Virus record (IMG/VR): IMGVR_UViG_3300006853_000001
Reading direction: 5' to 3' (one strand)
Source: a virus
Length of the DNA stretch: 64,000 nt
Numbering within the stretch: position 1 is the stretch's first letter; each line of letters begins with the position of its first letter. Shown here one piece after another: positions 11,662 through 42,503 of the stretch. The notes below the pieces were generated by a model. It did not search any database. It was not told the origin of the DNA and saw only the letters and a list, made by a program, of their open reading frames with translations. A program made the translations under genes and the position numbers.

Positions 11662-11685
11662 AGTTTGACGAGAGGATGATGAGAG

Positions 11686-11892
11686 ATGCGTAGGTTGTTG
11701 CTTTCACTTCTGTTTTTCGGTAGCTGGCTGCTCGGGTCCGCGCTGTTCTACTGGTGGGGCCGGGTGCTGCTACCCGAGGTCGGTCTCACGGCACCGAACT
11801 ACTGGACCTGGTTCTGGGCCAGCCTGCCGATCATATTTTCCGTCTTATGCGGAACGCTACTCGCGGCGCTGTTCGGCGAGGTGAACCGGTGA
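11686..11892 (+). CDS. small membrane protein
   Basis: ATG after GAGAGGATGATGAGAG, with two hydrophobic helices. Confidence 0.55.
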   Translation: MRRLLLSLLFFGSWLLGSALFYWWGRVLLPEVGLTAPNYWTWFWASLPIIFSVLCGTLLAALFGEVNR

Positions 11893-12680
11893 GACGAATC
11901 ATCACCCGGGCCGAGCTGGTCGCCCTCGCCGAAGAGCTCGGCGTCCGAGCGTGCTGGCACGAGCCCGACGAGCAGAGCCTCACGGCGACCGTCGAGGGCA
12001 CAGACTTCGACAACGCCGGGTTCTGGCCGGCAGAGATGCACGGCCACACCGTAACGACGATTGACCTGCCCCGCGAGGGCGCCACCCGCTGGGTATCCGA
12101 TCGTCACGAGTACCGCGGACCGGTCGAGCTGAACGTCATCTTGTGGCGCACCGAGATACACGACGGCCGGCAGCTCCGCGTCGAGCCTCTCGCGTGCGTT
12201 AACCTCGCGACGCTGTGCGCCTGGGCAACCGGTCTGGATGACGAGACGGGCGACCGGATCGACTGGCACGAGAAGTTTGACGAAGTGCACGAGCAGCTGT
12301 CGAAGATTCTGCGCAATGCCGAAATCGAGCATCCGCTCGGTCTCGTCGGAGTACGCGACTTGGTTGCTCAGTGCGAGAAGCATCTAGCGCGGATTCACGA
12401 GCTAGAGGACCAACTTGCCGAAGTGAGTGACCTGACCGACCGGTTGGCGCTCAACCCCAACGTGTCATCTGCCGTCGTCGCCGAGCTTCGTGAGGCGCTC
12501 GACGGCGTACCCGCCGAACGTCTGACTGAGTCTAAGTACCGATCTAAGATCGCCCGTGAGATCTACAGCTTTGGCGATCATCTCGAGCGGACCGCGGAGC
12601 ACCGCGGCGTCGGACTGGCGGCACACGCGATCGTGAACGAGGTCGGCGACCGTGTCGGCCAGATGCCGAAGGCAACCTAG
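11889..12680 (+). CDS. hypothetical protein
   Basis: GTG 11889 overlaps the upstream stop (GTGA). The product is 263 aa with a coiled-coil-like C-terminal half. Confidence 0.5.
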   Translation: MRRIITRAELVALAEELGVRACWHEPDEQSLTATVEGTDFDNAGFWPAEMHGHTVTTIDLPREGATRWVSDRHEYRGPVELNVILWRTEIHDGRQLRVEPLACVNLATLCAWATGLDDETGDRIDWHEKFDEVHEQLSKILRNAEIEHPLGLVGVRDLVAQCEKHLARIHELEDQLAEVSDLTDRLALNPNVSSAVVAELREALDGVPAERLTESKYRSKIAREIYSFGDHLERTAEHRGVGLAAHAIVNEVGDRVGQMPKAT

Positions 12681-13078
12681 TGGGTTACGCGTGGTACGAC
12701 GCGGTGTCCGATGAGGTCGCGCTGACCGTGCCGTGCGGTACGTGCGCCGCGCGATCAGGCAAGCCGTGCGTCTACGTCTGGCCACACGGCGTCAACCCGA
12801 CGTCGACGGTTCGATCGGCCGACACCTGGCGGCTGGTCAACCGTGTCGGCCGACCGTGTAAACGACCGCACAACGCAAGACGCGATGAGATTCGCCGACG
12901 TCGTCGCCAGGTCGCTCTCTCGTCGCCGGTCGTGCCGGCGAACCGGGTACGTCGCGCCGCGGCGGTCGCCGAACGCGAGTTCGAGCTCCGCGAGTATGAG
13001 GCGCTGCGCGGCTGGCTCGAGAGTTACGCGTATGTACTAACCGGCGGACAGCCACCGGCCGAGGGGAGAGAGACGTGA
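12680..13078 (+). CDS. hypothetical protein with Cys cluster and basic tail (possible zinc-ribbon DNA binder)
   Basis: Contains PCGTCAARSGKPC...PCKRPHNARRDE and an RRRRR tract. The start shows a TAGTG overlap with the upstream stop. Confidence 0.45.
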   Translation: MGYAWYDAVSDEVALTVPCGTCAARSGKPCVYVWPHGVNPTSTVRSADTWRLVNRVGRPCKRPHNARRDEIRRRRRQVALSSPVVPANRVRRAAAVAEREFELREYEALRGWLESYAYVLTGGQPPAEGRET

Positions 13079-13509
13079 CGACTTCAGGCGACGGCGACTA
13101 CCTGGCCCTGCGCGGCACGTACATCGAGCGCATGCACGCCGCACTCAAGTTCGCGCACGACAACCGGCTAAAGGCGTTCCGGTACGCGGATTTTCTACGG
13201 CCGGACGTGGAACGTGATCTAACACAGCGGTCCGGCGAGGCCGGTCGTCAGCGTGCTCACGTGATGCCGTCAGCCCAGGAGGTCTCGTTCGCCCTCGACC
13301 GGCGGCTGGCCGGCGACCCGAAGTTCACCGGTCCGGTGGCGAACGAGCGCTGGGGGATCCGGCTCGCCAACACATACGCGCTGGTCGAGCTGCTGTACGC
13401 CCAGCGGTACACCAACTTCCTGCTGGAACGACTGCTGGGTCGATCGGGAGGGTCGACCGATCCACCGCCGTCGCAGGCACCCGAGCCGGGTCCGCCGGCA
13501 CAGGCGTGA
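13075..13509 (+). CDS. hypothetical protein
   Basis: 144 aa ORF with a GTGA overlap start. Confidence 0.5.
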   Translation: MTTSGDGDYLALRGTYIERMHAALKFAHDNRLKAFRYADFLRPDVERDLTQRSGEAGRQRAHVMPSAQEVSFALDRRLAGDPKFTGPVANERWGIRLANTYALVELLYAQRYTNFLLERLLGRSGGSTDPPPSQAPEPGPPAQA

Positions 13510-14420: not shown

Positions 14421-15443
14421 TTGCTGTGTATAGTTGAGGGCCCGGACGGCGCGGGTAAGTCCACCCTCGTCGCCGCGGTCGCCGCCGCCCTCCGCGCCAC
14501 GTGTCCCCACGATGATGTGGAGGTCTGGCACGCCGGACCTCCACCTCCGGGCGCGCACCCGCTGGACCTGTACGCCCGGCCGCTGTACGACTATCGGCCG
14601 GGCGTCGGTCGTCACATCATCTGCGACCGGTGGCACGTCGGGGAGTGGGTGTACCCCGCCGTGTTCGGTCGCCCGTCCCGGGCGGATGAGGCGAGTCGCC
14701 GGTGGCTGGACATGTTCCTGCAGGCGCGTGGCGCCCTGTTAGTTCACGTGAACCCGCCGCTGTCACGTGTCGAGGCGCAGCTCCGAGCACGTGGCGACAG
14801 CACGGTTGTCCCCGGACAGCTACCCGAGCTGTTTCTCCGTTATCACGCCGAGGTCGCCCGGTCACGGCTGCGCCGGTGGCACCTGACACACGACAGCTGG
14901 TCGGCGGCCGGCGTCGCCGAGGTGGTTCTCGAGGAGGCACGACGCGCGGAGGATGAGGCTATCCCACTCGGCCGATTCGCCACGTACGCGGGTCCTGCGC
15001 GACCCCACTACCTCCTGCTGGGCGACGTGCGCCACCAGTTGCGCGACCGTGTTGGTTCGTTTTTAACACCTCGGCACAGCGTCGCGTACGGTCCGGCGTT
15101 TGGGCCGTATCCCGGCACGTCAGGCCACTACCTGTTAACGTACCTTCCCGAGGCGATGTTTCACGCCGGCGGCGACGCGGGCATCGGCGTCGCGAACGCC
15201 TGCGACGTGGATGACTGGAAGGATCTGTGGGACGTGCTCGGCGAACCACTGATCGTGACGCTGGGCGTACGTGCGACACGTGAGTTAGGATCATTCGCAC
15301 GAGGCTCGACGCCTCACCCGCAGTACGCACGGCGATTTCACTTTAACGACGCCGTCAGGTACGGTCAAGCGATCCACCGCGCGGGGCGATACGGGGAGCA
15401 CGTGCGTAGGTGGCACGATGTCGATACCACCGGTGAGAACTAA
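14421..15443 (+). CDS. fusion protein: thymidylate/dNMP kinase-like P-loop domain plus UDG-superfamily-like domain
   Basis: The N-terminus has VEGPDGAGKST (Tmk P-loop) and ICDRW (the DR motif). The C-terminus (about aa 185-320) carries UDG-like motifs in the expected order: YLLLGDVRHQ, GPAFGPYPGTSGHYLL, VANACD, IVTLGVRA, TPHPQY. Confidence 0.55.
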   Translation: MLCIVEGPDGAGKSTLVAAVAAALRATCPHDDVEVWHAGPPPPGAHPLDLYARPLYDYRPGVGRHIICDRWHVGEWVYPAVFGRPSRADEASRRWLDMFLQARGALLVHVNPPLSRVEAQLRARGDSTVVPGQLPELFLRYHAEVARSRLRRWHLTHDSWSAAGVAEVVLEEARRAEDEAIPLGRFATYAGPARPHYLLLGDVRHQLRDRVGSFLTPRHSVAYGPAFGPYPGTSGHYLLTYLPEAMFHAGGDAGIGVANACDVDDWKDLWDVLGEPLIVTLGVRATRELGSFARGSTPHPQYARRFHFNDAVRYGQAIHRAGRYGEHVRRWHDVDTTGEN

Positions 15444-15682: not shown

Positions 15683-16522
15683 GTGGGTGCTCTCATCGAG
15701 ATCGCCAACGGCGTTCGTGGCTACGGCGACTACGTGAATCACGTGCTCAACCGATCACATCCAAGAACCGCGCGCGGCCTGCCGACGCGTGACGCCGGTT
15801 TTACGGTGGTTGTGCTTCACGACGTCACCCAGTCGCTGCCACTCGATGTCGGTCGCCAGGTCAGCACAAAAATCGCGGCGCTGGAGGCGCTTCAACTCGT
15901 TGGAGGTCACTCGGATCCTCGGTCGCTGGTAGACGCCGCGCCGTTCTTCGGCGAGCTGCTGGAGCCCGACACCCGACGGTTTCACGGCGCATACGGCGAC
16001 CGAATTCGCGGCCAACTGGTCCAGGTTGTGACGAAGTTGCGCGAGGACCCCGGCTCACGGCAGGCCGTCATCACCCTGTGGGATCCGTGGCTGGACAACC
16101 AACCGGGCAAGAAGGACTACCCATGCACCGTTGCGATTGGGTTCGAGGTAGTTCGAGGTCGAGGCCTCGACATGAACGTCACCATGCGCAGTCAGGATGT
16201 CTGGCTCGGAACGCCCTACGACTGGTTCCAGTTCTCACTCCTTCAGATGACCGTTGCCCGACTACTTGGGGTCGAACCGGCGCTCTATCATCACACAACA
16301 TGGTCCACACACATCTACGAGCGTGATATCACAAAGCTCGACTGGCTGACCGATCCGCCACCCGCCGAGCATCGAACTCAGCAACCTCACACCGGTGTTG
16401 GAGAGGTTCTCGGCAACCCACACTCGACCACCCAGCGGGCACGTGACCTGCTGTTCGACGCCGTGAAGCCCGATGAGTTGTCCGTCTCCGAGAGGATCTT
16501 GCGTGACTGGCTCACCACCTAG
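15683..16522 (+). CDS. ThyA-family pyrimidine nucleotide C5 methylase/hydroxymethylase (Asp at the Asn177-equivalent position)
   Basis: RQAVITLWDP, YPCT (catalytic Cys148) and MRSQDVWLGTPYDWFQF align to E. coli ThyA SAWN, PCH and QRSCDVFLGLPFNIASY. Codon 16220-16222 (GAC) places Asp where ThyA has Asn177. Confidence 0.7.
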   Translation: MGALIEIANGVRGYGDYVNHVLNRSHPRTARGLPTRDAGFTVVVLHDVTQSLPLDVGRQVSTKIAALEALQLVGGHSDPRSLVDAAPFFGELLEPDTRRFHGAYGDRIRGQLVQVVTKLREDPGSRQAVITLWDPWLDNQPGKKDYPCTVAIGFEVVRGRGLDMNVTMRSQDVWLGTPYDWFQFSLLQMTVARLLGVEPALYHHTTWSTHIYERDITKLDWLTDPPPAEHRTQQPHTGVGEVLGNPHSTTQRARDLLFDAVKPDELSVSERILRDWLTT

Positions 16523-17027
16523 GGTTCGCCCGTCGTGGGACGAGACGTGGCTCGCGCAGGCGCGGGCCATCGGCGCGCGCAGCCTCTGCTCGCGCGCCCA
16601 GGTCGGTGCGGTCATCGTGTCCTCGGACAACAGCCGCACGTGGGTCGGGTACAACGGCGTCCCGGCGGGGTTCGAGCACAACGATCGGCCGTGCGTCGAG
16701 TGGTGCCCGCGCGCCCAGAAGTTTCGGCGCTTTAGCCCGTCATACGACGACTGCTACACGGTGCACGCGGAGGTCAACGCTCTGCTCAAGATGGACCGCG
16801 AGCTGGGTCGCGGCGGCACCCTCTACACGACGGGTGACGTCTGCTTCGCCTGTGCTAAGGTCGTAGCCAACTCGGGTCTGGCGACCGTGGTCGTGCTGTC
16901 GGACGGCCTCGCCGCCCACCGCAAGCCCGACGACACGTACCGGTTTCTCGAGAGGTGTGGGTTATCGGTCATCGTGCACACCGGTAACCTATCCGGTTCG
17001 GGTCCCGTGGTCACGTATAACGCGTAG
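16503..17027 (+). CDS. dCMP deaminase (cytidine/deoxycytidylate deaminase family)
   Basis: The zinc motifs HAEVNAL and CFACAKVV are present, and WDETWLAQA is a typical ComEB/dCMP deaminase N-terminus. GTG 16503 follows GAGAGGA; ATG 16473 is an alternative start. Confidence 0.75.
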   Translation: MTGSPPRVRPSWDETWLAQARAIGARSLCSRAQVGAVIVSSDNSRTWVGYNGVPAGFEHNDRPCVEWCPRAQKFRRFSPSYDDCYTVHAEVNALLKMDRELGRGGTLYTTGDVCFACAKVVANSGLATVVVLSDGLAAHRKPDDTYRFLERCGLSVIVHTGNLSGSGPVVTYNA

Positions 17028-25303: not shown

Positions 25304-26434
25304 GTGAAGATACTCATGCTGGTGCCTAACTTCTGGATCTCAGGCACCGTCACGCACATTCGCGAGCTGACGCTCGGCTGGCCGCCGGAGTGGCCGACGC
25401 CGCCGATCGCCGTGCCCACGCGTTCCGGCCGACCGTCCGGTAAGTGGGGACGCGACATCGCCGACGTGAAACGCGCCGACGCGACGACGTGGCGCCCGGA
25501 CCACTGGGGCACACCCGCCGAGATCGCACACCTGGCGCGTAACTTCGATCTCGTACACGTCAACGAGGCGGAGACGACACCGAGCTCGCAGGAGTGGTGG
25601 TACCAGACGCTCGAGCTCCTCGAGACGCCGTGGACGCTCCAGCTGAACGGAAACCTGTATCCGACCGTCAACTGGGACCGTATCCTCCGCTCGCCGCGCT
25701 CTACGGGCGTCATCTGGCAGACCCCGGGCAACGTGCCCGAGGCGCTCGTCCGTGACGACCGCGCGACGCTGGTGCCGCTATCTCGTCCCTGGAACCTGCG
25801 GTCGGCGACGTATGATCCTCCGGCCGGACCTGGAGGTGATAAGCCGCCGCTGGTCGGCTTCCACGGTCGTCTCGCGCCGGACAAGGGTGTGGCGCACGTT
25901 GCCGCGCTGGCCAAGCACCTCGACGTCGATGTCTGTCTTCACGGCGCGTCGCCGGGTGGCGGCTACCCCTACGCCTACGGTCTTCAACACACGTACCTCG
26001 GCGACCGGAAGTTTCGCGCGGAGGAGCCGTGGACCGCGCCTGATCTACCTCTACACTACGAAGGTCCCTACGGGGAGGGTTACGATGTGTCGCTGCATCA
26101 CACCGTGCACGTGTCGGCGACGCGTCTGGGCTTCTCGGCGGGTACCGAGTTCGCCCTGCTGGAGGCCATCGACGCGGGTTGTCGGATCGTCGTACCGGAT
26201 CACATGACCGAGCCCGCGACGCTCGGCGTGCTGCGGCAGTGGACGTACCCGTGGGAGCCGCGCGGCCTCAAGACCGCGCTGTCCGGCGAGCTGCGGTCGC
26301 TGAGTGAGGCGGTAAACCACGCGCTATACGTATCGTCATATGACGCCTCGCACAACCGGCAGGTGCTCGCTACGCACCACAACCCCGCCGCACTGGCCTG
26401 TGCGTTCTTCGGCGTCGCGGCATCCCGGATCTAG
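25304..26434 (+). CDS. GT-B fold glycosyltransferase (GT4-like)
   Basis: The N-terminus is MKILMLVPNF. LVGFHGRLAPDKGV is present, and the C-terminus has an E-x7-E-like motif (GTEFALLEAIDAGCRIVVPD). Confidence 0.65.
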   Translation: MKILMLVPNFWISGTVTHIRELTLGWPPEWPTPPIAVPTRSGRPSGKWGRDIADVKRADATTWRPDHWGTPAEIAHLARNFDLVHVNEAETTPSSQEWWYQTLELLETPWTLQLNGNLYPTVNWDRILRSPRSTGVIWQTPGNVPEALVRDDRATLVPLSRPWNLRSATYDPPAGPGGDKPPLVGFHGRLAPDKGVAHVAALAKHLDVDVCLHGASPGGGYPYAYGLQHTYLGDRKFRAEEPWTAPDLPLHYEGPYGEGYDVSLHHTVHVSATRLGFSAGTEFALLEAIDAGCRIVVPDHMTEPATLGVLRQWTYPWEPRGLKTALSGELRSLSEAVNHALYVSSYDASHNRQVLATHHNPAALACAFFGVAASRI

Positions 26435-26450
26435 AACGGAGGTGATAAGT

Positions 26451-27806
26451 ATGCGTGTTGGGTACGGAAAGATAGGAAGATCGATGCCGCTCAGCATCAC
26501 GAAGTGCGGTAGTCTCGGCGGCGACGTGGAGATGGCCGCGACGATCGGCGAACTCGCGCGGCGCAACCCGGAGTCAGACTTCTACCTCATCGGAAAGAAC
26601 AGCGGCGAGGAGCCCACGTCGGTCGGCCTGCCGAGCAACGTGCACAACCCGTGGATCAAGTGGGGTCCGCAGCTGCTCGACGCCAAGCGCCGTACCGGCT
26701 TGAATCACGCGAACTACTCCGTGGCCGACCACCTCGCTCTGCAAGACATCTATGACTCGGTAACGCTCGACTTCATAACGAAGCTCGACGGCATCGTACT
26801 CTGGGCCGGCCAGCACGGTACGACCAACGTGCCGCTGCCCGGCGTACGTGAACCCGGTAAGTACACCAAGCCACACGACTGGTCGGCGCACTACGTCGCG
26901 TTTCTGACACGAGCGATCAACATCTGGCGCGACGTCAACCCGTGGAAGCGCGAGGAGATCTGGCTCAACTCCGATCCGCGCAACTACCTCAAGTTACGCG
27001 ACCTCAAGTGGCCGCTGCGTCACCCGGTGCTCGCACAACACACGTATCATCACAGGATCAAGCACGCGCGGTACGGAGACCCGGGCCCGAACGGCGCTTT
27101 TGAGGAGTGGTCTGCCACGTGCGACCTCGGCGTCGAGACGCCGAGCGATGTCGATAAGGTGTGGAAGGCGTCCGTGCGGAATGTATACGCCCGGTTGGAG
27201 GTCAACGGTCTCTTGCCCAGCACACCGTTCGGCGACCTGCTGTCGTTCAACGACCGCTGGGAAGATCGCGCGGGGTTCGGCCTCTTCATGAATGAGACGC
27301 GACGCTACGTGCGCCAGGACATAACCCGGTCACACGTAATGCGTGAGTGGGTACTACCACTGGAACCGGCGTGGATTCACGGCACGTGGTCACAGGCCGG
27401 CCAGGAGGAGATCAACCGCGAGATCACCCCGGCACCGTGGGGCGACTACGTACCTAAGCTTCACTCCGTACGCTGTACCTTCACCTCACCGGCCAGCGGC
27501 ACCGGCTGGGCCACGGCTAAGCCGTGGGAAGCGTTCGCGGCCGGTACCGTGTGCTTCTTTCACCCCGGCTACGACGTCCAGGATAACATCCTCGGCGACG
27601 CACCGTTGTGGTTGAAGGACTGGCTGCGCGTCACCTCGCCCGACGAGTTGGTACACCGGGTTAAGCACCTCAGCTCAGACGCGGGTCGCACCGACTGGTA
27701 TGAGCTCGTAGCCGCCCAGCGCATACACTTCAATGACGCCGTTCGGGAGTTACGCTTTGCCCGGCTGATCGAAGCGCGCCTCGGGCTGCGAGGTACCGGT
27801 GACTAG
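26451..27806 (+). CDS. glycosyltransferase resembling T4 DNA beta-glucosyltransferase (GT63-like)
   Basis: By-eye alignment to T4 BGT gives four matches. MRVGYGKIGRS aligns with MKIAIINMGNN. IWLNSDPRN aligns with YLFTDIRL, the catalytic Asp100. NETRRYVRQ aligns with GSFRSGQRE, Arg191/Arg195. AKPWEAF aligns with LRVWETM, Arg269/Glu272. The spacings are similar. ATG 26451 follows GGAGGTGA. Confidence 0.55.
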   Translation: MRVGYGKIGRSMPLSITKCGSLGGDVEMAATIGELARRNPESDFYLIGKNSGEEPTSVGLPSNVHNPWIKWGPQLLDAKRRTGLNHANYSVADHLALQDIYDSVTLDFITKLDGIVLWAGQHGTTNVPLPGVREPGKYTKPHDWSAHYVAFLTRAINIWRDVNPWKREEIWLNSDPRNYLKLRDLKWPLRHPVLAQHTYHHRIKHARYGDPGPNGAFEEWSATCDLGVETPSDVDKVWKASVRNVYARLEVNGLLPSTPFGDLLSFNDRWEDRAGFGLFMNETRRYVRQDITRSHVMREWVLPLEPAWIHGTWSQAGQEEINREITPAPWGDYVPKLHSVRCTFTSPASGTGWATAKPWEAFAAGTVCFFHPGYDVQDNILGDAPLWLKDWLRVTSPDELVHRVKHLSSDAGRTDWYELVAAQRIHFNDAVRELRFARLIEARLGLRGTGD

Positions 27807-28593
27807 GGGATCGTCGGGCGCCACGTTCCGGTACTACCTCGAGAGCGTCGGCAAGATGTGCCGGACGGACGACGGGCGTACATCACGCCAGGGACTGTGG
27901 TTACGTCAGCACCAGTCTCCCGCCGTTCCGAAGGTACTGTCGGTATATGAGCACGGCTACCAGATGGAGCGGCTCGACGACATCTCTTACATGTGGTTAA
28001 ACCACCGTGTGGTGCTCGCCGGGATCGTGGAACAACTCGAGCAGCACGTGTGGTCACAGTCCGCCGAGGTCGAGTGGTCACAGCAGGCGACGGTCGACAA
28101 GGTGGCAGACCTACTCGGAATGTTCGACGTCGGTGTTGAGGTTCAGCTGTGGCTGGAAAAGACGCACGAGTCGATCGACTGGAACGCACTTCCACGGTGC
28201 CTAACGCACGGCGACCCGACGCTGGACAACGTGATGTTTAGGCCCGGTACATCCGAACTGGTCATCATCGACCCGGTTCCCGCGACCTCGGCGGTGCCCG
28301 ACATCCGGGCTGTGGACCTCGGTAAGATGCTCCAATCAGCGCTGGGCTGGGAGCGGGTTCGGTACGGCTACCGTGAGGTAACGGGAGCTCTCGACACGCT
28401 CGGTGGCAGTGCGCGAATCAACCCGTACCACGTGCAAACGTACGCGCAAGATGATAACGAGTGGAACGCGGCCGTACTCTGGTGCGTCATTCACCTACTA
28501 CGCACCCTACCCTACCTCGCACGATGTGCGGCACCTAAGGTTCAAGATGACGTGAGAGGCATGATCGGTGACGCAACTACGTTTCTTCCTTGA
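27799..28593 (+). CDS. APH/choline-kinase-fold small-molecule (sugar?) kinase
   Basis: The Brenner motif is present in CLTHGDPTLDNVMF, with the metal-binding Asp in LVIIDPV. Confidence 0.65.
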   Translation: MTRGSSGATFRYYLESVGKMCRTDDGRTSRQGLWLRQHQSPAVPKVLSVYEHGYQMERLDDISYMWLNHRVVLAGIVEQLEQHVWSQSAEVEWSQQATVDKVADLLGMFDVGVEVQLWLEKTHESIDWNALPRCLTHGDPTLDNVMFRPGTSELVIIDPVPATSAVPDIRAVDLGKMLQSALGWERVRYGYREVTGALDTLGGSARINPYHVQTYAQDDNEWNAAVLWCVIHLLRTLPYLARCAAPKVQDDVRGMIGDATTFLP

Positions 28594-29179
28594 TCTGGAT
28601 GGCACACTCGCCGACACCGACGCGCTTAACCGGGAGGCATATCGACGAGTTGGTGTTGAGGTACCGCCGAACGCCGCCGGCTTGTCATACCGTGAGTGGC
28701 TCGGCGATCTGGTCGGTATCGGTGATGTTGAGCGTGTTCACACCGCTAAGCAGGTGTGGTACGGCATCCTGCTGGGTGACGTAGATCCGCACACCTTAGC
28801 TCTGCCGCCGACCCGACTCGCACGTACCCTGCTGTACGGTGATGCTCGGCGGTCGGCGACCGTGTCGTGTCTAACGGCTGCGTCACACGAGTGTGCACGT
28901 ACCCTACTTCGTCGACTAGGTCTAAGCGTACCCGTCAAGCCACAGTTAACGTATGACGCACGACGCGTGATTTTGTCGCGTGCGATGTCCGTCGCCAAGC
29001 ATCGAGGTACCGGTTCCGTGGTATATGTTGATGACATGGGCAGCACCGTCGAGCGACTCACCGAGGACGTTCCGGGTCTCCGGTTGCTGCACTACACCGG
29101 GCAAACCTACGAGCAACTACGCGCCGAGCTCGCCGATGTCTTAGGAGAACTTATCACCAGAGAGTTGAAAACAGCGTGA
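28568..29179 (+). CDS. HAD-superfamily phosphatase/phosphomutase
   Basis: Motif I is FLDLDGTLADTD (DxDxT) and motif IV-like is VVYVDDMG. Confidence 0.7.
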   Translation: MTQLRFFLDLDGTLADTDALNREAYRRVGVEVPPNAAGLSYREWLGDLVGIGDVERVHTAKQVWYGILLGDVDPHTLALPPTRLARTLLYGDARRSATVSCLTAASHECARTLLRRLGLSVPVKPQLTYDARRVILSRAMSVAKHRGTGSVVYVDDMGSTVERLTEDVPGLRLLHYTGQTYEQLRAELADVLGELITRELKTA

Positions 29180-29862
29180 TCGACCACGCCGGGTTGGACG
29201 CCGTGATTCTCGCCGGTGGTAAGAGTGAGCGACTGAACGGGGTGGTACCTCCCTACTTCAAGCCGTTCGTCGTCATCGAGGGCAGGTCGCTGCTGGTCGC
29301 CGCGGTGGATAGCGCGCTGGCGATGGGTGCGCGTCGGGTGATCGTGGTGTCCGCCGGCGAGAACGCCCTGCCGGTGTTTCAACTGGTGGGTCACCGCCCG
29401 GAGATTCGCGTGATGCTGGCCACCGGCGGACCCGGCCGCGCGCTTCGCCGAGGTCTCGAGCTGTGTCAAACACAACGCGTTCTGGTGCTGATGAGCGACA
29501 ACATCCACGGACCCGAGGACGTCTACGCGGTATGCACGGCGGCGAACTACGCGGTCGGCGTGCGAGTCGTTCACCGGGTTGAGGCCGAGAGGTTTACTCG
29601 TCTCCGAGGCGACCGCTGGGTGGAGCGTAGATATGACCAAGACCCGCTCGATGATGAGGTAGCGAAATGGAGCGACGACGCTACACAGGCGGTAACGGTC
29701 TGGTGCGGCCCGCTGGTCATCGACCGGTACCGCGGTCTCAACGCACTGGCCGGCCAGGAGAAGATCGGTCCGGTGCTCAATGAGATGGCGCCCAGCTTCG
29801 CGCTGGTACACGTGTTAACGCAGGATATCGGCACGCCCGACGCGGTACGCCGGGTGACCTAG
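29176..29862 (+). CDS. nucleotidyltransferase (MobA/IspD/sugar-phosphate NTP-transferase fold)
   Basis: AVILAGGKSERL is the LAGGxGxRL signature, and VLVLMSDN is present. The start shows a GTGA overlap. Confidence 0.65.
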   Translation: MIDHAGLDAVILAGGKSERLNGVVPPYFKPFVVIEGRSLLVAAVDSALAMGARRVIVVSAGENALPVFQLVGHRPEIRVMLATGGPGRALRRGLELCQTQRVLVLMSDNIHGPEDVYAVCTAANYAVGVRVVHRVEAERFTRLRGDRWVERRYDQDPLDDEVAKWSDDATQAVTVWCGPLVIDRYRGLNALAGQEKIGPVLNEMAPSFALVHVLTQDIGTPDAVRRVT

Positions 29863-29874
29863 GAAAAATGAGAG

Positions 29875-30057
29875 ATGATGCGAGCAGGTAAGCTGACCCC
29901 GCGCCAGCGCCGGCGCGCGGCTAAGAAGAGTACGGCTGCCGCCGAGCGTCGTAAACACAACTACATCGATCAGCTGATCGAGGCGCGGGCACATCGCGCC
30001 GCGCGTAGGACAATGATAAGTGCAATGCGTGATGCTCGGAAGAAACTGGTGAGTTGA
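29875..30057 (+). CDS. small basic protein
   Basis: 60 aa, rich in Lys and Arg; ATG follows GAGAG. Confidence 0.45.
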   Translation: MMRAGKLTPRQRRRAAKKSTAAAERRKHNYIDQLIEARAHRAARRTMISAMRDARKKLVS

Positions 30058-30569
30058 TGGATCGCCTCGAGGAGATGTTACACGCCCAGCGGGAGCTCCA
30101 GGAGCTGATCAACGGCTACACGCTCGAGAGTCAGTCAGACGAGCTGCGCATCGCGAACATCAAGGAGAGCTACGTCGCGCTTATCAAGGAGCTCGGCGAG
30201 GTTCTGGATGAGATTGGCTGGAAGAGCTGGGCGACCAGTCGTCACATCAACTACGAGGCGGCACGCGGCGAGGTCGTTGACTGCTGGCACTTTCTCATGA
30301 ACCTCGCGCTGCACCTTAACGTGACCGCAGATGACCTGTACGAGGGCTACCGCCGAAAGCGTGAGAAGAACGAGCGACGCCAGCGCGAGGGCTACGACGG
30401 TGTGACGGGCAAGTGCCCGCACTGTCGACGGTCGTACGATGACCAAGGAGTCCGGTGCACCCCGTCGTGTGTCGCGACCGGCGGAACGCCGGCCTGGTGC
30501 GTGGAAGCCGGTCGGCTGGTCGGACCCGGTACACTCTCCGCTACATCAGAAACCACCCACAACACCTGA
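30057..30569 (+). CDS. all-alpha NTP pyrophosphohydrolase (MazG / dimeric dUTPase-dCTPase family) with Cys-rich tail
   Basis: Contains ALIKELGEVLDEIGWKSW and EVVDCWHFLMNLA, the paired acidic helices typical of the family. The C-terminus has CPHCRRSYDDQGVRCTPSC. Confidence 0.6.
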   Translation: MDRLEEMLHAQRELQELINGYTLESQSDELRIANIKESYVALIKELGEVLDEIGWKSWATSRHINYEAARGEVVDCWHFLMNLALHLNVTADDLYEGYRRKREKNERRQREGYDGVTGKCPHCRRSYDDQGVRCTPSCVATGGTPAWCVEAGRLVGPGTLSATSETTHNT

Positions 30570-30582: not shown

Positions 30583-31215
30583 ATGGGAACAAACCCGAGT
30601 CGCAACCGTGGACGCACGGTTAAAGCGTTTCACAAAGCGTACGGTTACGGTCCCTGGTCGTGTTTCTTCTGTGTGATTCCGGTGCTAGAGATTGGGCGTG
30701 GCACATGGAACGGTAACATTCATCACATTGATGATGATGTTACGAATGACACCGCAGATAATCTCGCGATGACACACGTGCTTTGTCACCGAAAACACCA
30801 CGGGCTGTCTGACGTCGCAAGAAGTAAGCTAAGTGATGCGTTTCGCGGACGTGAGTCACCTACGAAAGGTATGCGGTTCTCCGCAGAGGTGAATGCCAAG
30901 AAAGCGCATCACGGATCAGACAATCACCAGTTTAGAAAACCACTACCACTTCACACACGACAAGCTATCAGCCGCGCCAACCGGCGAATGGTGATTTGTG
31001 AAATGTGTGGTGTCGAGATCGCAGCGCACTGGATTCGTCGGCACCAGGCAAGTGGTTGCCAGCCGAAAAAGTGCATCACAGTCAACGGTGTTGTGCGTGT
31101 GCGTGGTATCGAGCCTAAGGTGATCTGCCAGGTATGCGGTAAACCTTATGCATCCCGCTGGATGCAACGCCACAAGGACAACGGAATGTGTGTACCTATG
31201 GACGTGAACACATGA
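30583..31215 (+). mobile_element. HNH endonuclease gene (free-standing homing-endonuclease-like)
   Basis: The HNH core is GNIHHIDDDVTNDTADNLAMTHVLCHRKHHG. Two repeated CxxCG...W..RH fingers are present. GC content is clearly lower than the flanks, and the stop overlaps the methyltransferase start (ATGA). Confidence 0.75.
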
Positions 31216-32482
31216 CATACACCGCGGTGGACGTTCTTGGGTTTGCTGGAGGTTTTACCCTCGGGATGGTCCAGGCGGGCTTTAAACTGGTTGGTAAGAA
31301 GGAACTTCCAGGCGGCTTCGGTGTAGCAAACTGTCTCGCTAATCGCGCACTTCTTGGTAATAGTTGGCAGGCACAGATAGGACCTGCCGAGTCGTGGGAG
31401 GTGATCAGTGGGGGTTGTGATGTTGTATTCGGCAACCCCCCGTAAGACCGTGCTCAGGATTTTCCGTCATGAGCGCCAAGTCATTTCGCGGAGCAAACTC
31501 TAAAGTGAACGCGTGTATGTGGGCATTTGCCGACTACGTCATTCGAGCACGTCCCACGATCGCCGTCTTCGAGAGCGTTCAGCAGGCGCGCAACCGCCCC
31601 GACGGTCTGGATCTCATGCGCCGGCTGCGCGCCCACGTGGAGGAGGACACCGGCGACCGGTGGACGCTCTACCACGTCCGGCACAACGCGTATTCGGTGG
31701 GCGGATGTGCCCAGCGGAAGCGCTACTTCTGGCTCATCTCGCGGGTTCCGTTCGGCGTCGAGGTGCCACAGCCGAGAACACTGCCCGTACTGGCAGACGT
31801 GATAGCAGACCTCGCGCCTCTCGGGCGGACGTGGCACGCGCAGCCGTACCGGGCACCCGTCACACACATGTGGACGGAGCAGCTGCGGTCGGCGTCCGGC
31901 GCAGTGGACGGCCACGTTCACGTCAGCAACCCACTCACACAGCGAGTGGCCGACCTGATCGACGGCTGTGGCTGGGAGCCCGGCGCGTCGCTGGGTGAGA
32001 TCTGTCGCCGGTACTACGAGAAGCACGGCCGGCTACCGGCGTCGATGGCACAGGGTGAGGCTAAGATCGTCGCCAACGACTTCGCGATGGGTTTCACGAC
32101 CGTGACGCGCTGGCGCGGCGAGCAGCCGGCGCGCGTCATTACCGGCGCGTCGCTGCAGCTGGTCATTCACCCGTGGCTCGACCGCATGATCACACACCGT
32201 GAGGCCGCGCGCATCCTCGGCTTCCCGGACGACTGGCTGATCAAGCCACTGCGCGGCGTCAGCGGTCTCAATCTCACGTGGGGAAAGGGAATATCTGTGC
32301 ACTGCGGCCGGTGGATCGGCGGGTGGATCGCCCGCGCGCTGGACGGCAACCCCGGCACTCACGTAGGATCTCTGATCGGCGAGCGTGAGTATGATATCGA
32401 TGTGACGCACGCCTGGAAGAGCGCCGTCTCGCGCAGCAGCGTGGTCGCGCGAGACGATACCGCTGTAGATGTGCTAATGTAG
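31212..32482 (+). pseudogene. DNA (cytosine-5)-methyltransferase, reading frame broken at a C6 tract just before the catalytic Pro-Cys
   Basis: Motif I is VLGFAGGFTLG. The frame ends ...VVFGNPP-TAA at 31443. The -1 frame continues PPVRPCSGFS (motif IV), then FESVQQ (ENV-like), QRKRYFW (QxRxR), THREAARILGFPDDW and GKGISV. The C run is at 31436-31441. Confidence 0.75.
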
Positions 32483-37805: not shown

Positions 37806-38924
37806 TCAAACACGGTACCGGGCAACCTCTCCGGCCAACCTACGCTCGGTCTCGAACGCGTCGGCCCAGGCCTCCGCCCAGCGCCACGTGTTGCCCTCCG
37901 TCGTCCAGTTCGCCGCGATTTCGCGTCCTCGACCAGACAGTTCATCACGTGCGTCACGACTCTCGACCAGAGACCTCAGATGCCGTAACCAACGCTTCGG
38001 TTTATCTGCGATCAGACCTACGCCCAGCCGGTGAAAGCGTAAGTACTCCGGACTCGGCGACGCGACCCACGGCACACCCAGCGCCGCGTACTCCAACGGC
38101 TTGAGCCACGACTTTCCGTCGTTGAATTTCGTCGCCGCCAGCGGTGCGACTCCGACGCCCAGTTTAGCGACCTCCGCAGGCCAGCCGACCAGCGGATCCT
38201 GCGGTCCGGTGTTCGTAGGCTCGACATCCAGCCGTAGCGCGTCCCGGACCCCGATGCCGTCACCTACCACGTGGAACGGCGTTCCGGTGTCTCGAGACAA
38301 CTGAGCTAGTGCGGTTCCCGTTGCCTGAAGGTCATCCGGGTGAGAGTGCGTTGAACCTGCCCAACCTACTACCGTCGAGTCTACCCGCTCGACCGCGAGA
38401 TAGCGCGCCGGCACACAGTTGTACAGGATCCTGCCGCGTCCGTGCGGTGCATACCGCGTCAGCAACGCGTCCGTGGACACGGTGACGAAGGTGGCCTCCT
38501 CGCACGCTCGCTGGGCGTACTGCCAGTTATGATCCTTGCTTGCGCCGAAGACCGGGTGCATGGCGGCAAACGCGGGATTGTTCGGATTCACAGCGGCGAG
38601 GTCGTCGTCCATGTCGATCACCACTGCGATGCCACGCCTACGCAGCATGCCGATCGCATCCACCAGGTGCTTGTGTGTGATGCGTTGCAAAATGATCATA
38701 TCGGCGTCCTCGGGTACCTGGACGTCTACGAGTTTACCGTCCGCGTCCACCCGTCCCTGGAACGCGGCGTTTCGATCCTTGGGCATAACAATGACAACGT
38801 CGTGTCCGTCTGCATGAAGCTGTCGTGCGGGCCATATTAGCCGGTGATACCCACACCCGTGTTCATCGGCGGGATACACGTACGTTTTCACAGGTTGTGT
38901 CCACCTCTCCGCGTAATCCACCAC
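37806..38924 (-). CDS. GT-B glycosyltransferase (group 1-like)
   Basis: Contains VGWAGSTHSHPDDL, FHVVGDG and KFNDGKSWLKPLEYAALGVPWVASP. It is a paralog of the gene at 41514-42500. Confidence 0.65.
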   Translation of the reverse strand: MVDYAERWTQPVKTYVYPADEHGCGYHRLIWPARQLHADGHDVVIVMPKDRNAAFQGRVDADGKLVDVQVPEDADMIILQRITHKHLVDAIGMLRRRGIAVVIDMDDDLAAVNPNNPAFAAMHPVFGASKDHNWQYAQRACEEATFVTVSTDALLTRYAPHGRGRILYNCVPARYLAVERVDSTVVGWAGSTHSHPDDLQATGTALAQLSRDTGTPFHVVGDGIGVRDALRLDVEPTNTGPQDPLVGWPAEVAKLGVGVAPLAATKFNDGKSWLKPLEYAALGVPWVASPSPEYLRFHRLGVGLIADKPKRWLRHLRSLVESRDARDELSGRGREIAANWTTEGNTWRWAEAWADAFETERRLAGEVARYRV

Positions 38925-38979
38925 GTGAGTGCGAGAATCACGACGCCGAGTAGAGCTCCTAGCGCTACTTGCCCGGTCA

Positions 38980-39576
38980 CTACCACCTGTCCGGCCTTCC
39001 CGAGGTGTTCTTGCCGTCGTGGTTCCAGATCCACGTCACCTCAGGTACGTGGTGAAAACGCGCACCGGCGTCCAGCAACCGGACGTAAAAGCCCCAGTCG
39101 TCGTAGTCGATCTCCACCCCGACCGGCGGCCCGAATTGTGCGCTGCACGCGAGCTCCGATCGCACCAGACTGGTCACCGGGATATACGACTTCTCACGCA
39201 GTAGCGCGGCAGAGAACTCCTGACCGAAGCGTCCCCACTCCTCCCGGAGAGGTATCTCATTTTCGTCCTTATCCAAGACCTGGCAGCCCGAATACACGAC
39301 GTCGGAATTGGTTAGCTCGGCAGCCTCCAGCAGCACGTTCACGTGATGCGACAGCCACCGGTCATCATCGTCCAGAAACGCGACCCACTCGGTGTCCACG
39401 CGTGACAGCGCACGGTTTCGCGTCGCGGCCGAGCCGGTGTGCTCGACGTCCACCTCGACGGCGATGGCGGTAACCCGCTGAGTCTGAACCGCCACGCTCT
39501 TCACCGCCGTCGCCAGGGCGTTGGGTCGGGTCGGGATGTGCGGGATGACCGCCGTAACGTCTCGCGGAAAGTTCAC
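38980..39576 (-). CDS. GT-A (family 2-like) glycosyltransferase, tandem paralog 1
   Basis: Contains VTAVIPHIPTRP, SAATRNRAL and WVAFLDDDD (DxD). The C-terminus is SGRPDRW. Confidence 0.65.
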   Translation of the reverse strand: MNFPRDVTAVIPHIPTRPNALATAVKSVAVQTQRVTAIAVEVDVEHTGSAATRNRALSRVDTEWVAFLDDDDRWLSHHVNVLLEAAELTNSDVVYSGCQVLDKDENEIPLREEWGRFGQEFSAALLREKSYIPVTSLVRSELACSAQFGPPVGVEIDYDDWGFYVRLLDAGARFHHVPEVTWIWNHDGKNTSGRPDRW

Positions 39577-39579
39577 GTT

Positions 39580-40149
39580 CTACCACCTATCAGGTTGTCC
39601 AGAGGTATTGTGTCGGTTGTGCCGCCAGATCCACGTAACCTCGGGGACGTGTGTGAACTGTGCGCCGGCGCGAAACGCACGCTGCTGAAAACCCCACTCA
39701 TCCCACTCGTTCGTGAACTTAACCCGCTGTGCCAACTCGGTACGCACCAGCATCGTAACGGTGATGTAAGGTCGAACGAACAGCAGCTCCGGATCGAACG
39801 GCTGACCGAACGGGTTCCACACCACCTCGTTGGCCTCGTTCGTGACGATGCAGTTTGTGTAGACGACATCAGCTCCGGTCCGCTCCGCGTGATCCAGCAG
39901 CGTCTCGATGTGATGCGGCAACCAGAGATCATCGTCGTCGAGAAACGCCACCCACGACGTGTCTGCTGCTGCCAACGCGCGCGTGCGCGTCACAGCAGAT
40001 CCCTCGCGCTGTGTGTCCACGGCGATGCTGATCCCACGCACTGAACGGCTCTGCGCGGTGACGCTCTCCAGCGCCTGCACCAGTACGTGCGCCCGCGGCG
40101 GTACGCTGGGGATCACGGCTGTGACGTCGCTCGGAAAGCTTGCTACCAC
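39580..40149 (-). CDS. GT-A (family 2-like) glycosyltransferase, tandem paralog 2
   Basis: Contains VTAVIPSVPPRA, SAVTRTRAL and WVAFLDDDD. The C-terminus is SGQPDRW. Confidence 0.65.
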   Translation of the reverse strand: MVASFPSDVTAVIPSVPPRAHVLVQALESVTAQSRSVRGISIAVDTQREGSAVTRTRALAAADTSWVAFLDDDDLWLPHHIETLLDHAERTGADVVYTNCIVTNEANEVVWNPFGQPFDPELLFVRPYITVTMLVRTELAQRVKFTNEWDEWGFQQRAFRAGAQFTHVPEVTWIWRHNRHNTSGQPDRW

Positions 40150-40712
40150 CTAGTAGCCAGTCCGCTGGTGTTACCGGAGTGCACCGCGTAACACCACGTG
40201 ATATCACCGGTACCTATGAACTTACCACCTAGCTCGAGACATCGCAACGTGAATCGCCAGTCCTCACCGGGCCACACGTCATTCTCGTCCTCGTGGTTTC
40301 GGAAGCCGGCCTCACGGGCCAGCTCCGTTCGCACCATGACGGTCATCGTTGTGTGGTGCGGATCGGACGGATTCATCTGCCGTCCCCGGTGCATCGGAAA
40401 CGGGTTGTTGCCGTCAAACCACGAGTAACAGTATGACGCGTCGTGATCTGCGGCTAGCTTCATCAGCGTCTCGAGGTGATGTGGGTAGAAGTAGTCATCA
40501 TCATCCAAGAACGCCACCCACTCCGTACGCACGGCATCCAGCGCACGCTGCCGGGTAGCCGCGGCACCCTCCTTCAACACGTCTAAGGCGCACGAGATGC
40601 CGCCGGATGGTTGCCTAGTCTGGTCCTTGACGCTCTGAACGGCACGGTTGAGGAGACCGCCGACGCGCGGCGGAATGGTCGGCAGCGCGACTGTGACCGA
40701 AACCTTACTCAT
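40143..40712 (-). CDS. GT-A (family 2-like) glycosyltransferase, tandem paralog 3
   Basis: Contains VTVALPTIPPRV, AAATRQRAL and WVAFLDDDD. The C-terminus is SGLATRW. ATG 40712 follows GGAG; the ORF track start at 40763 overlaps the upstream gene. Confidence 0.6.
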   Translation of the reverse strand: MSKVSVTVALPTIPPRVGGLLNRAVQSVKDQTRQPSGGISCALDVLKEGAAATRQRALDAVRTEWVAFLDDDDYFYPHHLETLMKLAADHDASYCYSWFDGNNPFPMHRGRQMNPSDPHHTTMTVMVRTELAREAGFRNHEDENDVWPGEDWRFTLRCLELGGKFIGTGDITWCYAVHSGNTSGLATRW

Positions 40713-40713
40713 C

Positions 40714-41001
40714 CTAGCTCCACTCATAGTCCACGACAGCCCCACCCTCATCTCGCACGACACCCGTCGGTTTATCGATCGACGAAAGTGTGTTCGACAG
40801 CTCTACACGCAAGTCGGCTGCCAACTTCGGCAGGCCCATCTCGCACGCGTCGGCGTAGGCGTTTAACGCTGCCCGCGCGTATGGGTCGTGCACGTAGTCC
40901 AGGACGAAGTAGCGGGCGCCGGCCTTGTCACCGCCGGGGCGATCTCGGCCGTCGACCCGTTGAACACGGTACCTACTCTGCAGACCGTCGTTCTCACTCA
41001 C
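40714..41001 (-). CDS. hypothetical protein
   Basis: GTG 41001 overlaps the upstream stop (GTGA). The 95 aa product contains ARYFVLDYVHDPYARAALNAYADA. Confidence 0.45.
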   Translation of the reverse strand: MSENDGLQSRYRVQRVDGRDRPGGDKAGARYFVLDYVHDPYARAALNAYADACEMGLPKLAADLRVELSNTLSSIDKPTGVVRDEGGAVVDYEWS

Positions 41002-41513
41002 GCCCACCTCACTCCACTCACGACGCACTGCCACGCCGGTCCCCGGTACGCGATCGGCCAGTCCGGCGGCACCGTATGCATATACACCTCGGATACCTCG
41101 CACCATCCCGCATCCCGCATCATATCGATGATCTTGCCTGGTGTGCACTCCCAGTGGTGCACGTCTCCGCTCCAGCGCCCGGCACCGTCGCGCAACTCTC
41201 CCAGGGTAATGTCAATAAGCGTTCCCGCGTCGGCCATCGCCTGCGCGCGGTCGAGGTCTGGCCCTACGACGAGCAACTGGCCACCCGGCACTGTGCAGTC
41301 GAGCAGCCGCGTTAGCAGGGCGACGCACTGCTGTGGCATTAGGTGTTCCAACACGTGGCCCGCGTAGATGCGTTCGATCGTCAGTGGCGCCCACGGCAGC
41401 TCGCCGGTGAGGTCGACCTCCAGGTCCTTCGGGTGCGGAGAACCGAAGTCGACGTTAACCCACCCCGGGGCGTACTGGTCACCGCAGCCGAGATTAAGTC
41501 TCACAGCTAGCAC
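40998..41513 (-). CDS. class I SAM-dependent methyltransferase
   Basis: Motif I is LNLGCGDQYAPGWVNVD, followed by IYAGHVLEHL. Confidence 0.65.
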   Translation of the reverse strand: MLAVRLNLGCGDQYAPGWVNVDFGSPHPKDLEVDLTGELPWAPLTIERIYAGHVLEHLMPQQCVALLTRLLDCTVPGGQLLVVGPDLDRAQAMADAGTLIDITLGELRDGAGRWSGDVHHWECTPGKIIDMMRDAGWCEVSEVYMHTVPPDWPIAYRGPAWQCVVSGVRWA

Positions 41514-42500
41514 TCAGTTCGCTTCATACGCTCTCTCCCACAAGTGAATGTGCTTACCAATCGTAGCGCGACGCGCACTTTCACGTGCCGCGGTACTCAT
41601 CGGCCCACGCATCGTGTCATCGGTGAGCGCATCTAGCGCATCCAGCCACTCGCCGAACGTGTCGACGATAAAGCCGTTCACGCCGTGCTGGACCCAGTCC
41701 GGATACTGACCCCACCGCGTGGCGATGACCGGTGCTCCGCGCGCCGCGTACTCGAGCGGCCGGGTCCACGACTTACCTCGGTTGTGCGACGTCCGGTTGA
41801 GCGGTGCCAGACCGATATCGATGTCAAACGACGCGAGGTGCGCGTTGTGTGTCTGGTATCCACTAACCCGTGCACGACCTTCCAGACGCCCGTCGGTGTA
41901 GTCGGAGCCGAGAGCGTGGAAGGTCGCACGCGGCTGCGTAGTCAGGTACTTGACGAGGACCTCAGTAAGCCTCTCGGCCTCCCAGTCGTGCCTGTGGAAC
42001 GGCGAGCCGGCCCAGCCGACAGTCAGTCGGTCTGGCGTCGTCAGCAGCGGACGCTCGACCGTGATAGCATCGACGCAGATCGGCAGCACGTGCACATTGT
42101 CGTTGAGCTCGGTGTACCGCTCGGCGACGTACGGCGTGCATGTCGTTACGACGTCGGCCGCCTGGACGTTTCTCTTCGTGTCCTCCGAGAGCGGCGCGTA
42201 GATCGAGTACGGCACCTCGTTCTCGGGATCCAGCCAGATGAGGTCGTCGTCCGCGTCGTAGACGGTAAGTACGTTCGGATCGGCGCACAGCGCCAGCCAC
42301 TCGGGATTCGAACCGGCAAGCCGCTGGCCGATCACAACATCGTAGTCGTGAATGTCCGGCGGAGGTGGTCCCCACGTCGCCGCCCAGCGGGTCGTGTCGA
42401 GCGCCTCAAGTGGTAGCTTGATCCTGTAGATGAAACAGGCGTCCACAGCCGTAATCCACGCGAAAACTCGACGCCTCACCGTCACAGCATGCCACCCCAC
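41514..42500 (-). CDS. GT-B glycosyltransferase (group 1-like)
   Basis: Contains TVGWAGSPFHRHDW and NRTSHNRGKSWTRPLEYAARGAPVIAT. It is a paralog of the gene at 37806-38924. Confidence 0.65.
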   Translation of the reverse strand: MGWHAVTVRRRVFAWITAVDACFIYRIKLPLEALDTTRWAATWGPPPPDIHDYDVVIGQRLAGSNPEWLALCADPNVLTVYDADDDLIWLDPENEVPYSIYAPLSEDTKRNVQAADVVTTCTPYVAERYTELNDNVHVLPICVDAITVERPLLTTPDRLTVGWAGSPFHRHDWEAERLTEVLVKYLTTQPRATFHALGSDYTDGRLEGRARVSGYQTHNAHLASFDIDIGLAPLNRTSHNRGKSWTRPLEYAARGAPVIATRWGQYPDWVQHGVNGFIVDTFGEWLDALDALTDDTMRGPMSTAARESARRATIGKHIHLWERAYEAN

Positions 42501-42503
42501 TTT

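Follow-up and report, generated by a model that had tools for sequence, protein, structure and literature searches.

The gene at positions 26451-27806 (+) of a 64,000-nucleotide stretch of phage DNA, IMG/VR record IMGVR_UViG_3300006853_000001 (the whole of which is called the window here), encodes a 451-amino-acid GT-B glycosyltransferase that resembles the DNA beta-glucosyltransferase (BGT) of phage T4 and is predicted to be an inverting enzyme that glycosylates 5-hydroxymethylcytosine (5hmC) in DNA. The longest open frame spans 26340-27806, and the ATG at 26451 is assigned as the functional start because it lies 6 nt downstream of a Shine-Dalgarno-like GGAGGTG read from the sequence at 26438-26444 (+), because the stop codon of the preceding gene falls at 26432-26434, because the N-terminus of all homologs reads M-[RK]-[IV]-G-Y-G-K, and because public gene calls on contigs with an identical protein also give 451 amino acids. 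The open reading frame therefore stands as it was described in an earlier note on this DNA, which a model had made from the sequence alone and which had proposed a BGT homolog in an actinophage setting.

The gene lies within a replication and nucleotide-metabolism module whose synteny is kept in relatives 37-70% identical, and in dozens of loci the gene holds a fixed slot here and not among the structural genes. The module includes a Tmk-like P-loop kinase (14421-15443, +; PHROG 761, E 2.6e-10, with a faint match to Pfam Thymidylate_kin and a syntenic position in relatives), which is a candidate 5-hydroxymethyl-deoxycytidine monophosphate (5hm-dCMP) kinase, a ThyA homolog with a dCMP-hydroxymethylase signature (15683-16522, +) and a dCMP deaminase (16503-17027, +). 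These are followed in order by DNA polymerase A, an SNF2 helicase, a PD-(D/E)XK nuclease, a Sak4-like ATPase and a DUF669-like protein, and then by a 372-amino-acid GT4-like (retaining-type) GT-B glycosyltransferase (25316-26434, +) and the BGT-like gene itself. Directly 3' lies a trio consisting of an APH/choline-kinase-fold kinase predicted to be a sugar (anomeric) kinase (27799-28593, +; Pfam APH, E 1.1e-6), a HAD-superfamily enzyme with a DLDGTL motif predicted to be a sugar-phosphate phosphatase or mutase (28568-29179, +; weak Pfam HAD/Hydrolase match), and a MobA/IspD-like nucleotidyltransferase predicted to be a sugar-1-phosphate nucleotidylyl, possibly cytidylyl, transferase (29176-29862, +; Pfam NTP_transf_3, E 1.9e-13). 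The next gene encodes an all-alpha dimeric dUTPase/MazG-like NTP pyrophosphatase (30057-30569, +; Pfam dUTPase_2, E 5.7e-17; PHROG 18650, E 4e-40; PDB 1w2y, E 3.9e-7) that, by analogy with T4 gp56, is a candidate dCTPase/dUTPase that would exclude canonical dCTP and supply dCMP. An HNH endonuclease gene (30583-31215, +), which is not present at the syntenic position in the relative L010, separates it from a C5-cytosine DNA methyltransferase-like gene (31212-32482, +). On the other side, 5' of the module, two minus-strand genes encode a D5_N/AAA helicase-like protein (6671-8239) and a Prim-Pol primase/polymerase (8236-9405).

The actinophage setting is borne out by the presence of a WhiB gene and by the DNA polymerase A, whose best cultured-phage matches are all actinobacterial phages. 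Both the polymerase and the ThyA homolog find their best matches in phages of Micrococcus, Microbacterium, Arthrobacter and Gordonia and in the metagenome-assembled Actinomycetia phage DSL-LC01, and G+C content is 59-73%. The BGT-like family itself is large and restricted to metagenomes: a search at E ≤ 1e-3 collects 575 proteins, to none of which a Pfam domain is assigned, the representatives at 50% identity contribute 341 clusters, and 320 IMG/VR loci are confirmed. A megablast comparison of 7 kb found nothing among 50,697 phage records, and the sole tblastn match was in Pseudoalteromonas phage XG4, at 24% identity.

The relation to T4 BGT emerges from comparisons at the level of family profiles. 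As a single sequence, the protein matches only the generic Glyco_trans_1_2 model in Pfam, below threshold (E 0.03; the same model is matched by 20 of 43 diverse family members), and single-sequence searches of PHROGs, NCBIfam and, by phmmer, the PDB returned nothing specific. A profile of close relatives at least 52% identical (A1), searched against 177,635 PDB sequences, ranked T4 BGT first with an E of 0.33, and its alignment by hhalign to a profile of the verified BGT family (A2) covered the last 74 columns, with a probability of 80%. A third profile (A3) was built from diverse family representatives down to 21% identity, taken from the search of 50%-identity representatives, and in an hmmsearch against the same PDB sequences T4 BGT was its sole significant match (E 2.7e-8, BGT residues 148-349), the runner-up having an E of 0.57. 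Aligned to A2 by hhalign, A3 gave 96.9% probability and an E of 2e-10 over 217 columns of the C-terminal domain, at an identity to BGT of about 11-15%. As negative controls, the three other GT-B glycosyltransferases of the window were not matched by A3 (E 0.04-0.89, probability at most 1.2%), which indicates that the relation to BGT is specific and amounts to more than a common fold.

The predicted structure leads to the same enzyme. The AlphaFold2 model (predicted local distance difference test score, pLDDT, 85; predicted template modelling score, pTM, 0.86) has T4 BGT as its top two Foldseek matches in the PDB, 1nzd (E 1.7e-8) and 1bgu (E 1.5e-7), with template modelling scores of 0.60-0.64 on the BGT length; the next match stands at 7.9e-6, and generic GT-B enzymes trail BGT by two to three orders of magnitude. 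In the viral structure library BFVD the model comes nearest to two proteins of metagenomic phages (E 3.5e-19 and 9.5e-17), and one of these bears the name 'DNA beta-glucosyltransferase'. As modelled, the protein thus has a GT-B fold, and among solved structures T4 BGT is the nearest to it; together with the profile comparisons this makes it a remote but real homolog of T4 BGT, beyond chance, as the earlier note had proposed.

Several functional landmarks of BGT have conserved counterparts in the family. The KPWE360 motif (K357-P-W-E360), which had been paired by eye with BGT R269-V-W-E272, occupies that position in the local significant alignments, where the match extends to T355 (BGT T267), W359 (W271) and D375 (D287), residues that are invariant or nearly so in both families and define a common motif T-x-[KR]-x-W-E...[YF]-D. 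The likeness claimed for the C-terminal helix is likewise recovered by computed alignments, in which SPDELVHRVKHLSSD is aligned with the BGT helix NRAELIDRVNELKHSD. The proposed pairing of R284 and R288 with the BGT arginines R191 and R195 does not hold, as it is misplaced by 5-9 residues: R288 is not conserved, R284 is conserved in the close clade only, and the arginine that aligns with R195 is R293, which is invariant even in the diverse alignment. With K357 invariant and aligned with R269, and E360 at least 90% conserved and aligned with E272, the donor-phosphate and ribose ligands R195, R269 and E272 all have conserved counterparts, and a nucleotide-sugar site formed by R293, T355, K357, W359, E360 and D375 is predicted from these alignments. 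In the N-terminal domain, D175 and R177 are at least 90% conserved across the family, which fits a catalytic role, and D175 is a candidate catalytic base.

The nature of the acceptor is suggested by the ThyA homolog encoded about 10 kb 5' of the BGT-like gene in the same module. This protein scores far below the NCBI cut-offs for thymidylate synthase (64 bits versus 327). According to the criteria of a 2026 study (PMC13326640), the product type of ThyA homologs can be predicted from positions 143, 146, 169 and 177. The window protein has L143D and N177D and keeps C146 and D169, the pattern of T4 gp42-type 5hm-dCMP synthases, and RB69 gp48, used as a control, reads E/C/N/D, matching the published 5-hydroxy-dCMP pattern. 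All ThyA homologs linked to family members read D143/C146/D169/D177, with the exception of one unreadable truncated open reading frame (L073); in total 48 sequences read D/C/D/D, a count that includes the reference sequences of that alignment. Of the 42 IMG/VR loci whose upstream flank reaches 9.5 kb, 37 have such a ThyA homolog. In phage XG4 the genes around the family member encode a ThyA homolog that is T4-gp42-like (D/C/D/D), an NTP-transferase::APH-kinase fusion, a further glycosyltransferase and a C5 methyltransferase. Of the arguments from context for action on hydroxymethylated cytosine in DNA, this independent co-occurrence carries the most weight. The suggestion that DNA is the target thus gains support from gene context, as a hydroxymethylase-type ThyA and nucleotide genes share a conserved module with the enzyme both here and in an unrelated Pseudoalteromonas phage.

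The genes directly downstream bear on the donor. A sugar-nucleotide cassette stands beside the glycosyltransferase gene in 52 of the 57 loci with at least 4.5 kb of downstream sequence and takes three forms, namely an RGP-like protein with an NAD-dependent epimerase (30 loci), the kinase/HAD/nucleotidyltransferase trio found here (10 loci) and an NTP-transferase::kinase fusion (12 loci). In the trio, the nucleotidyltransferase has IspD-type cytidylyltransferases as its best NCBIfam and PDB matches, all of them weak; the HAD homolog in L012 has a HAD match; and the APH-fold kinase shows weak N-lobe similarity to the kinase part of RB69 gp52, the similarity of the cassette proteins to RB69 proteins being marginal. 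The RGP-like protein (for example in the cassettes at L010:11656-13655 and L011:11465-13497, and in 28 further IMG/VR loci) matches Pfam RGP, the UDP-arabinopyranose-mutase/GT75 family, with an E of 1.2e-5, and its presence with the epimerase in place of the trio in most relatives suggests that the same glycosyltransferase is served by a different, possibly pentose, donor. As a phage sugar-activation cassette adjoins the gene, the sugar is probably phage-activated and the donor probably not host UDP-glucose. Lactobacillus phage ATCCB (L001) pairs a true BGT homolog with a UDP-galactopyranose mutase. DSL-LC01 (L015), the closest named phage, also has a ThyA homolog with the hydroxymethylase signature, and at 11285-13421 it carries in the same slot a 348-amino-acid glycosyltransferase followed by a UDP-galactopyranose mutase; this glycosyltransferase was considered as a family homolog and rejected, as it has no detectable homology.

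The GT4-like neighbour directly 5' of the BGT-like gene appears to play a subsidiary part. A T4 alpha-glucosyltransferase-like identity was rejected for it, as Foldseek searches with its AlphaFold2 model (pLDDT 87) give a GT4-like result, led by the alpha-1,2-glucosyltransferase 7fg9, the GT4 enzyme 2jjm and TarM. It has just 16 homologs in the database and occurs in a minority of relatives; L010, L011 and the P0021 contig lack it. This rarity marks it as an accessory enzyme, and it is most likely a second-sugar transferase. As the BGT-like enzyme is the sole glycosyltransferase of the module in most relatives, it must be the base-proximal transferase.

Taken together, the data point, with a probability of roughly 0.7, to an inverting GT-B enzyme, remotely homologous to BGT, that acts once replication is over and glycosylates 5hmC in the duplex DNA of the phage itself. 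Of this picture, the analysis shows the homology, the fold, the conserved motifs and the gene context with its conservation, and the acceptor, the chemistry, the identity of the sugar and the sequence of steps are inferred. The steps proposed here are modelled on the T4 pathway and on the mechanism of BGT. The dUTPase/MazG-like enzyme would deplete dCTP and supply dCMP, shaping the pyrimidine pool together with the dCMP deaminase; the ThyA homolog would convert dCMP to 5hm-dCMP, which the Tmk-like kinase and host kinases would raise to 5hm-dCTP for incorporation by DNA polymerase A. In parallel, the APH-fold kinase, the HAD enzyme and the nucleotidyltransferase would convert a host sugar phosphate to a nucleoside diphosphate (NDP)-sugar, to be held in the C-terminal domain by the six residues of the predicted donor site. 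The 5hmC base would be flipped out, and D175 as base, with help from E27, would activate the hydroxymethyl oxygen for attack on C1 of the sugar with inversion. The GT4-like neighbour would probably extend or diversify the glycan in this phage, and the expected benefit would be resistance to host restriction and CRISPR nucleases.

A number of observations weigh against this interpretation. At E ≤ 1 the Pfam T4-Gluco-transf model matches neither the window protein nor any of the 43 diverse family members, so the family is a sister of the curated BGT family and lies outside it as currently modelled in Pfam; a GT63 profile search of the kind suggested in the earlier note thus yields only generic Glyco_trans_1_2 hits when run with the Pfam model, a result that by itself would have spoken against the relation, and finds BGT when run with the A3 profile. 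Only the C-terminal donor-binding domain shows significant sequence similarity. The N-terminal domain, which would hold the acceptor and catalytic sites, is about 75 residues longer than that of BGT and is aligned there with low confidence, so that the similar spacing claimed for the landmarks holds in the C-terminal domain and fails in the N-terminal one. The pairing of D175 with BGT D100 (LNSDPRN versus LFTDIRL; L-x-[ST/P]-D-x-R) and that of an additional landmark, E27 with E22, are seen only when the two profiles are forced into a global alignment, in which the confidence per column is low, and the N-terminal strand (residues 1-13) has a local match with an E of 0.46, non-significant alone, and is otherwise lined up only in the low-confidence global alignment. 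When the landmarks are judged by computed alignment, the glutamate, the lysine/arginine and the helix are recovered, the aspartate is placed at low confidence and the arginine pair is displaced. BGT R191 aligns with Q289 and is without a conserved counterpart. The loops 20-24 and 123-141 hold invariant residues and are modelled with low confidence, and the phage is known only from metagenomes.

The C5-methyltransferase-like gene is a further observation of this kind. Such a gene is present near the BGT-like family in 54 of the 57 loci with downstream flank, the distant XG4-like clade included (for example in loci L016-L095 and at L003:5363-6580), and the proposed pathway does not account for this near-universal neighbour, because not much cytosine would remain for methylation if 5hmC comes, as predicted, from a ThyA-type hydroxymethylase. 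A TET-like gene was not seen. In the window the gene is split into a 77-amino-acid N-part, ending in GNPP followed by a stop, and a 337-amino-acid C-part. Relative to the intact homolog at L010:14260-15462 (GNPPCSGFSVMS), it carries an 8-nt insertion at 31443-31450 (TAAGACCG) directly 5' of the catalytic Cys codon TGC at 31451-31453, and the identical split is found in the gene calls of the public contigs L008 and L009. The gene is probably a pseudogene in this phage.

The main alternative is a non-DNA acceptor, such as virion proteins (the capsid and tail are glycosylated in mycobacteriophages), host envelope glycans or a small molecule, with the BGT likeness reflecting ancestry of the donor domain only. 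The restriction of significant similarity to the donor-binding half and the generic Pfam matches are in keeping with this, as is a second glycosylation cluster of the window (37806-43739, -) at the distal end of the tail genes. All on the minus strand, this cluster consists of a GT-B gene (37806-38924), two GT2 genes (38980-39576 and 40143-40763), a second GT-B gene (41514-42500) and a TylCIII-like sugar C-methyltransferase gene (42504-43739), and tail fibre and tape-measure genes then follow. It suggests that non-DNA glycosylation also takes place in this phage and could share the phage NDP-sugar for protein glycosylation, and it counts with the adverse points above. However, the BGT-like gene stays at its place among the replication and nucleotide genes in dozens of loci and co-occurs with a hydroxymethylase-type ThyA even in an unrelated marine phage, the best structural match over the whole chain is T4 BGT, and the A3 profile misses the tail-adjacent GT-B enzymes, all of which renders a non-DNA acceptor improbable.

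Another possibility is that the enzyme does act on DNA, with 5-hydroxycytosine or 5-hydroxymethyluracil as the base, or by extending a sugar first set by the GT4-like neighbour. Phages of the RB69 and HY126 type have ThyA homologs that make 5-hydroxycytosine together with an analogous kinase, HAD and NTP-transferase set, a dCMP deaminase that could supply dUMP adjoins the ThyA homolog of the window, and a second glycosyltransferase lies directly 5' of the BGT-like gene. Against this, the ThyA homolog keeps D169, where the published 5-hydroxycytosine signature is D169N, and its N177D is of the cytosine type and not the uracil type; as the sole glycosyltransferase of the module in most relatives, the BGT-like enzyme must be capable of modifying the base directly; and no SIS-domain (arabinose-5-phosphate isomerase) match was found among the open reading frames scanned across 3.7-46.6 kb, a set that did not include all small ones. 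A model of arabinosylated 5-hydroxycytosine was set aside with regard to the base, as D169 disfavours it, and these variants as a group are considered unlikely. A chance or merely generic GT-B resemblance, to which the empty single-sequence searches and the low identity might point, is excluded to near certainty by the BGT-specific profile statistics, the negative controls and the ranking of BGT first among structures.

With 5hmC in DNA retained as the preferred acceptor, a broader proposal can be made with more reserve, at slightly less than even odds: that a widespread, as yet uncultured actinophage lineage replaces cytosine with 5hmC, which is decorated by the BGT-like glycosyltransferase with a sugar set by the swappable adjacent cassette, of which three types exist. 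BGT-like DNA glycosyltransferases of the GT-B type from metagenomic phages are already in the literature, in part with experimental validation, as are the preference of these enzymes for ThyS as a linked gene and their association with APH, HAD and cytidylyltransferase partners, and the locus is not a new category. What it adds is an actinophage lineage, a fixed glycosyltransferase slot with interchangeable sugar cassettes and the near-universal C5-methyltransferase-like partner. No report of glycosylated 5hmC in actinophages was found in a literature search, and if the proposal is correct this would be the first such DNA in actinophages, extending glycosylated 5hmC beyond T-even-like and gut or marine metagenomic phages to a large soil and freshwater lineage. 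It would also mean that one base-proximal DNA glycosyltransferase scaffold accepts several non-glucose NDP-sugars of the heptose or pentose type, and that the C5-methyltransferase-like partner has some further role. Such a modification would bear on restriction and CRISPR evasion in Actinomycetota and on the sequencing and cloning of these phages, and a BGT-like scaffold that apparently works with different phage-made NDP-sugars could serve as a 5hmC-labelling enzyme.

Among known systems, T4 BGT (GT63, PF09198; structures 1bgt, 1j39, 1nzd and 1sxp) is the closest comparison, sharing the GT-B fold, the best structural and sole significant PDB sequence match, the T-x-[KR]-x-W-E...[YF]-D motif, the R195 equivalent and the C-terminal helices; D175 and E27 are candidate equivalents of D100 and E22 in the low-confidence global alignment. 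Both genes have a dCMP-hydroxymethylase-type ThyA nearby, and in T4 gene 42 directly abuts beta-gt. The window protein differs in its length (451 versus 351 amino acids, with about 75 extra N-terminal residues), in its distance from BGT in identity and from the Pfam family model, in the missing R191 counterpart, in a donor that is probably not host UDP-glucose, and in belonging to a phage that is not T4-like and has an actinobacterial host. Mycobacteriophages reportedly carry operons for virion glycosylation, and these resemble the present case in being actinophage glycosyltransferases and in having a similar operon in the window at 37806-43739. In contrast to them, the BGT-like gene belongs to the replication module, is linked to a dCMP hydroxymethylase and is unrelated to those glycosyltransferases at the profile level.

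The arabinosyl-5-hydroxycytosine clusters of RB69, DLP3 and HY126 combine a ThyA homolog, a Tmk-like kinase, a GT-B, a HAD phosphatase and an APH-fold kinase with an NTP transferase (PMC13326640). The window follows the same cluster logic, its trio being analogous to AfhE/AfhF-type arabinose activation, and its GT4-like neighbour resembles RL38J1 gp151 in matching the same structures (7fg9/8x3q). The two differ in the base, with D169 here (hydroxymethyl) and D169N there (hydroxyl), in the transferases, which there resemble GT4 enzymes and not BGT, and in the arabinose-5-phosphate isomerase, which was not found among the open reading frames scanned here.

The metagenomic phage GT-B enzymes GT53, GT66 and GT94 ('subclass III', 419-429 amino acids) glycosylate 5hmC in E. 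coli according to bioRxiv 10.1101/2023.12.21.572611, which gives Foldseek E-values against T4 BGT of 1e-5 to 1e-7 for them and a proposed catalytic Asp that overlaps D100. The same work states that in contig 53 the transfer of heptose to 5hmC depends on a BGT-like GT-B together with a HAD-APH enzyme and a cytidylyltransferase, all three being required, and that GT-B matches in metagenomes are linked more often to ThyS than to TET-like enzymes (bioRxiv 10.1101/2023.12.21.572611). Their tested clusters make 5hmC post-replicatively by a C5-methyltransferase and a TET-like dioxygenase, whereas the ThyA type found here would be pre-replicative, and relative to contig 53 the HAD and APH functions are separate genes in the window and a GT4-like enzyme is added. 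Compared by the values given there, the BGT-like protein belongs to the same size class and has a similarly strong Foldseek match to T4 BGT (E 1.7e-8). Like these enzymes it is clustered with a predicted 5hmC-generating enzyme, here the ThyA homolog, and its APH, HAD and IspD-like neighbours, directly 3' of the gene, correspond to the partner set of contig 53.

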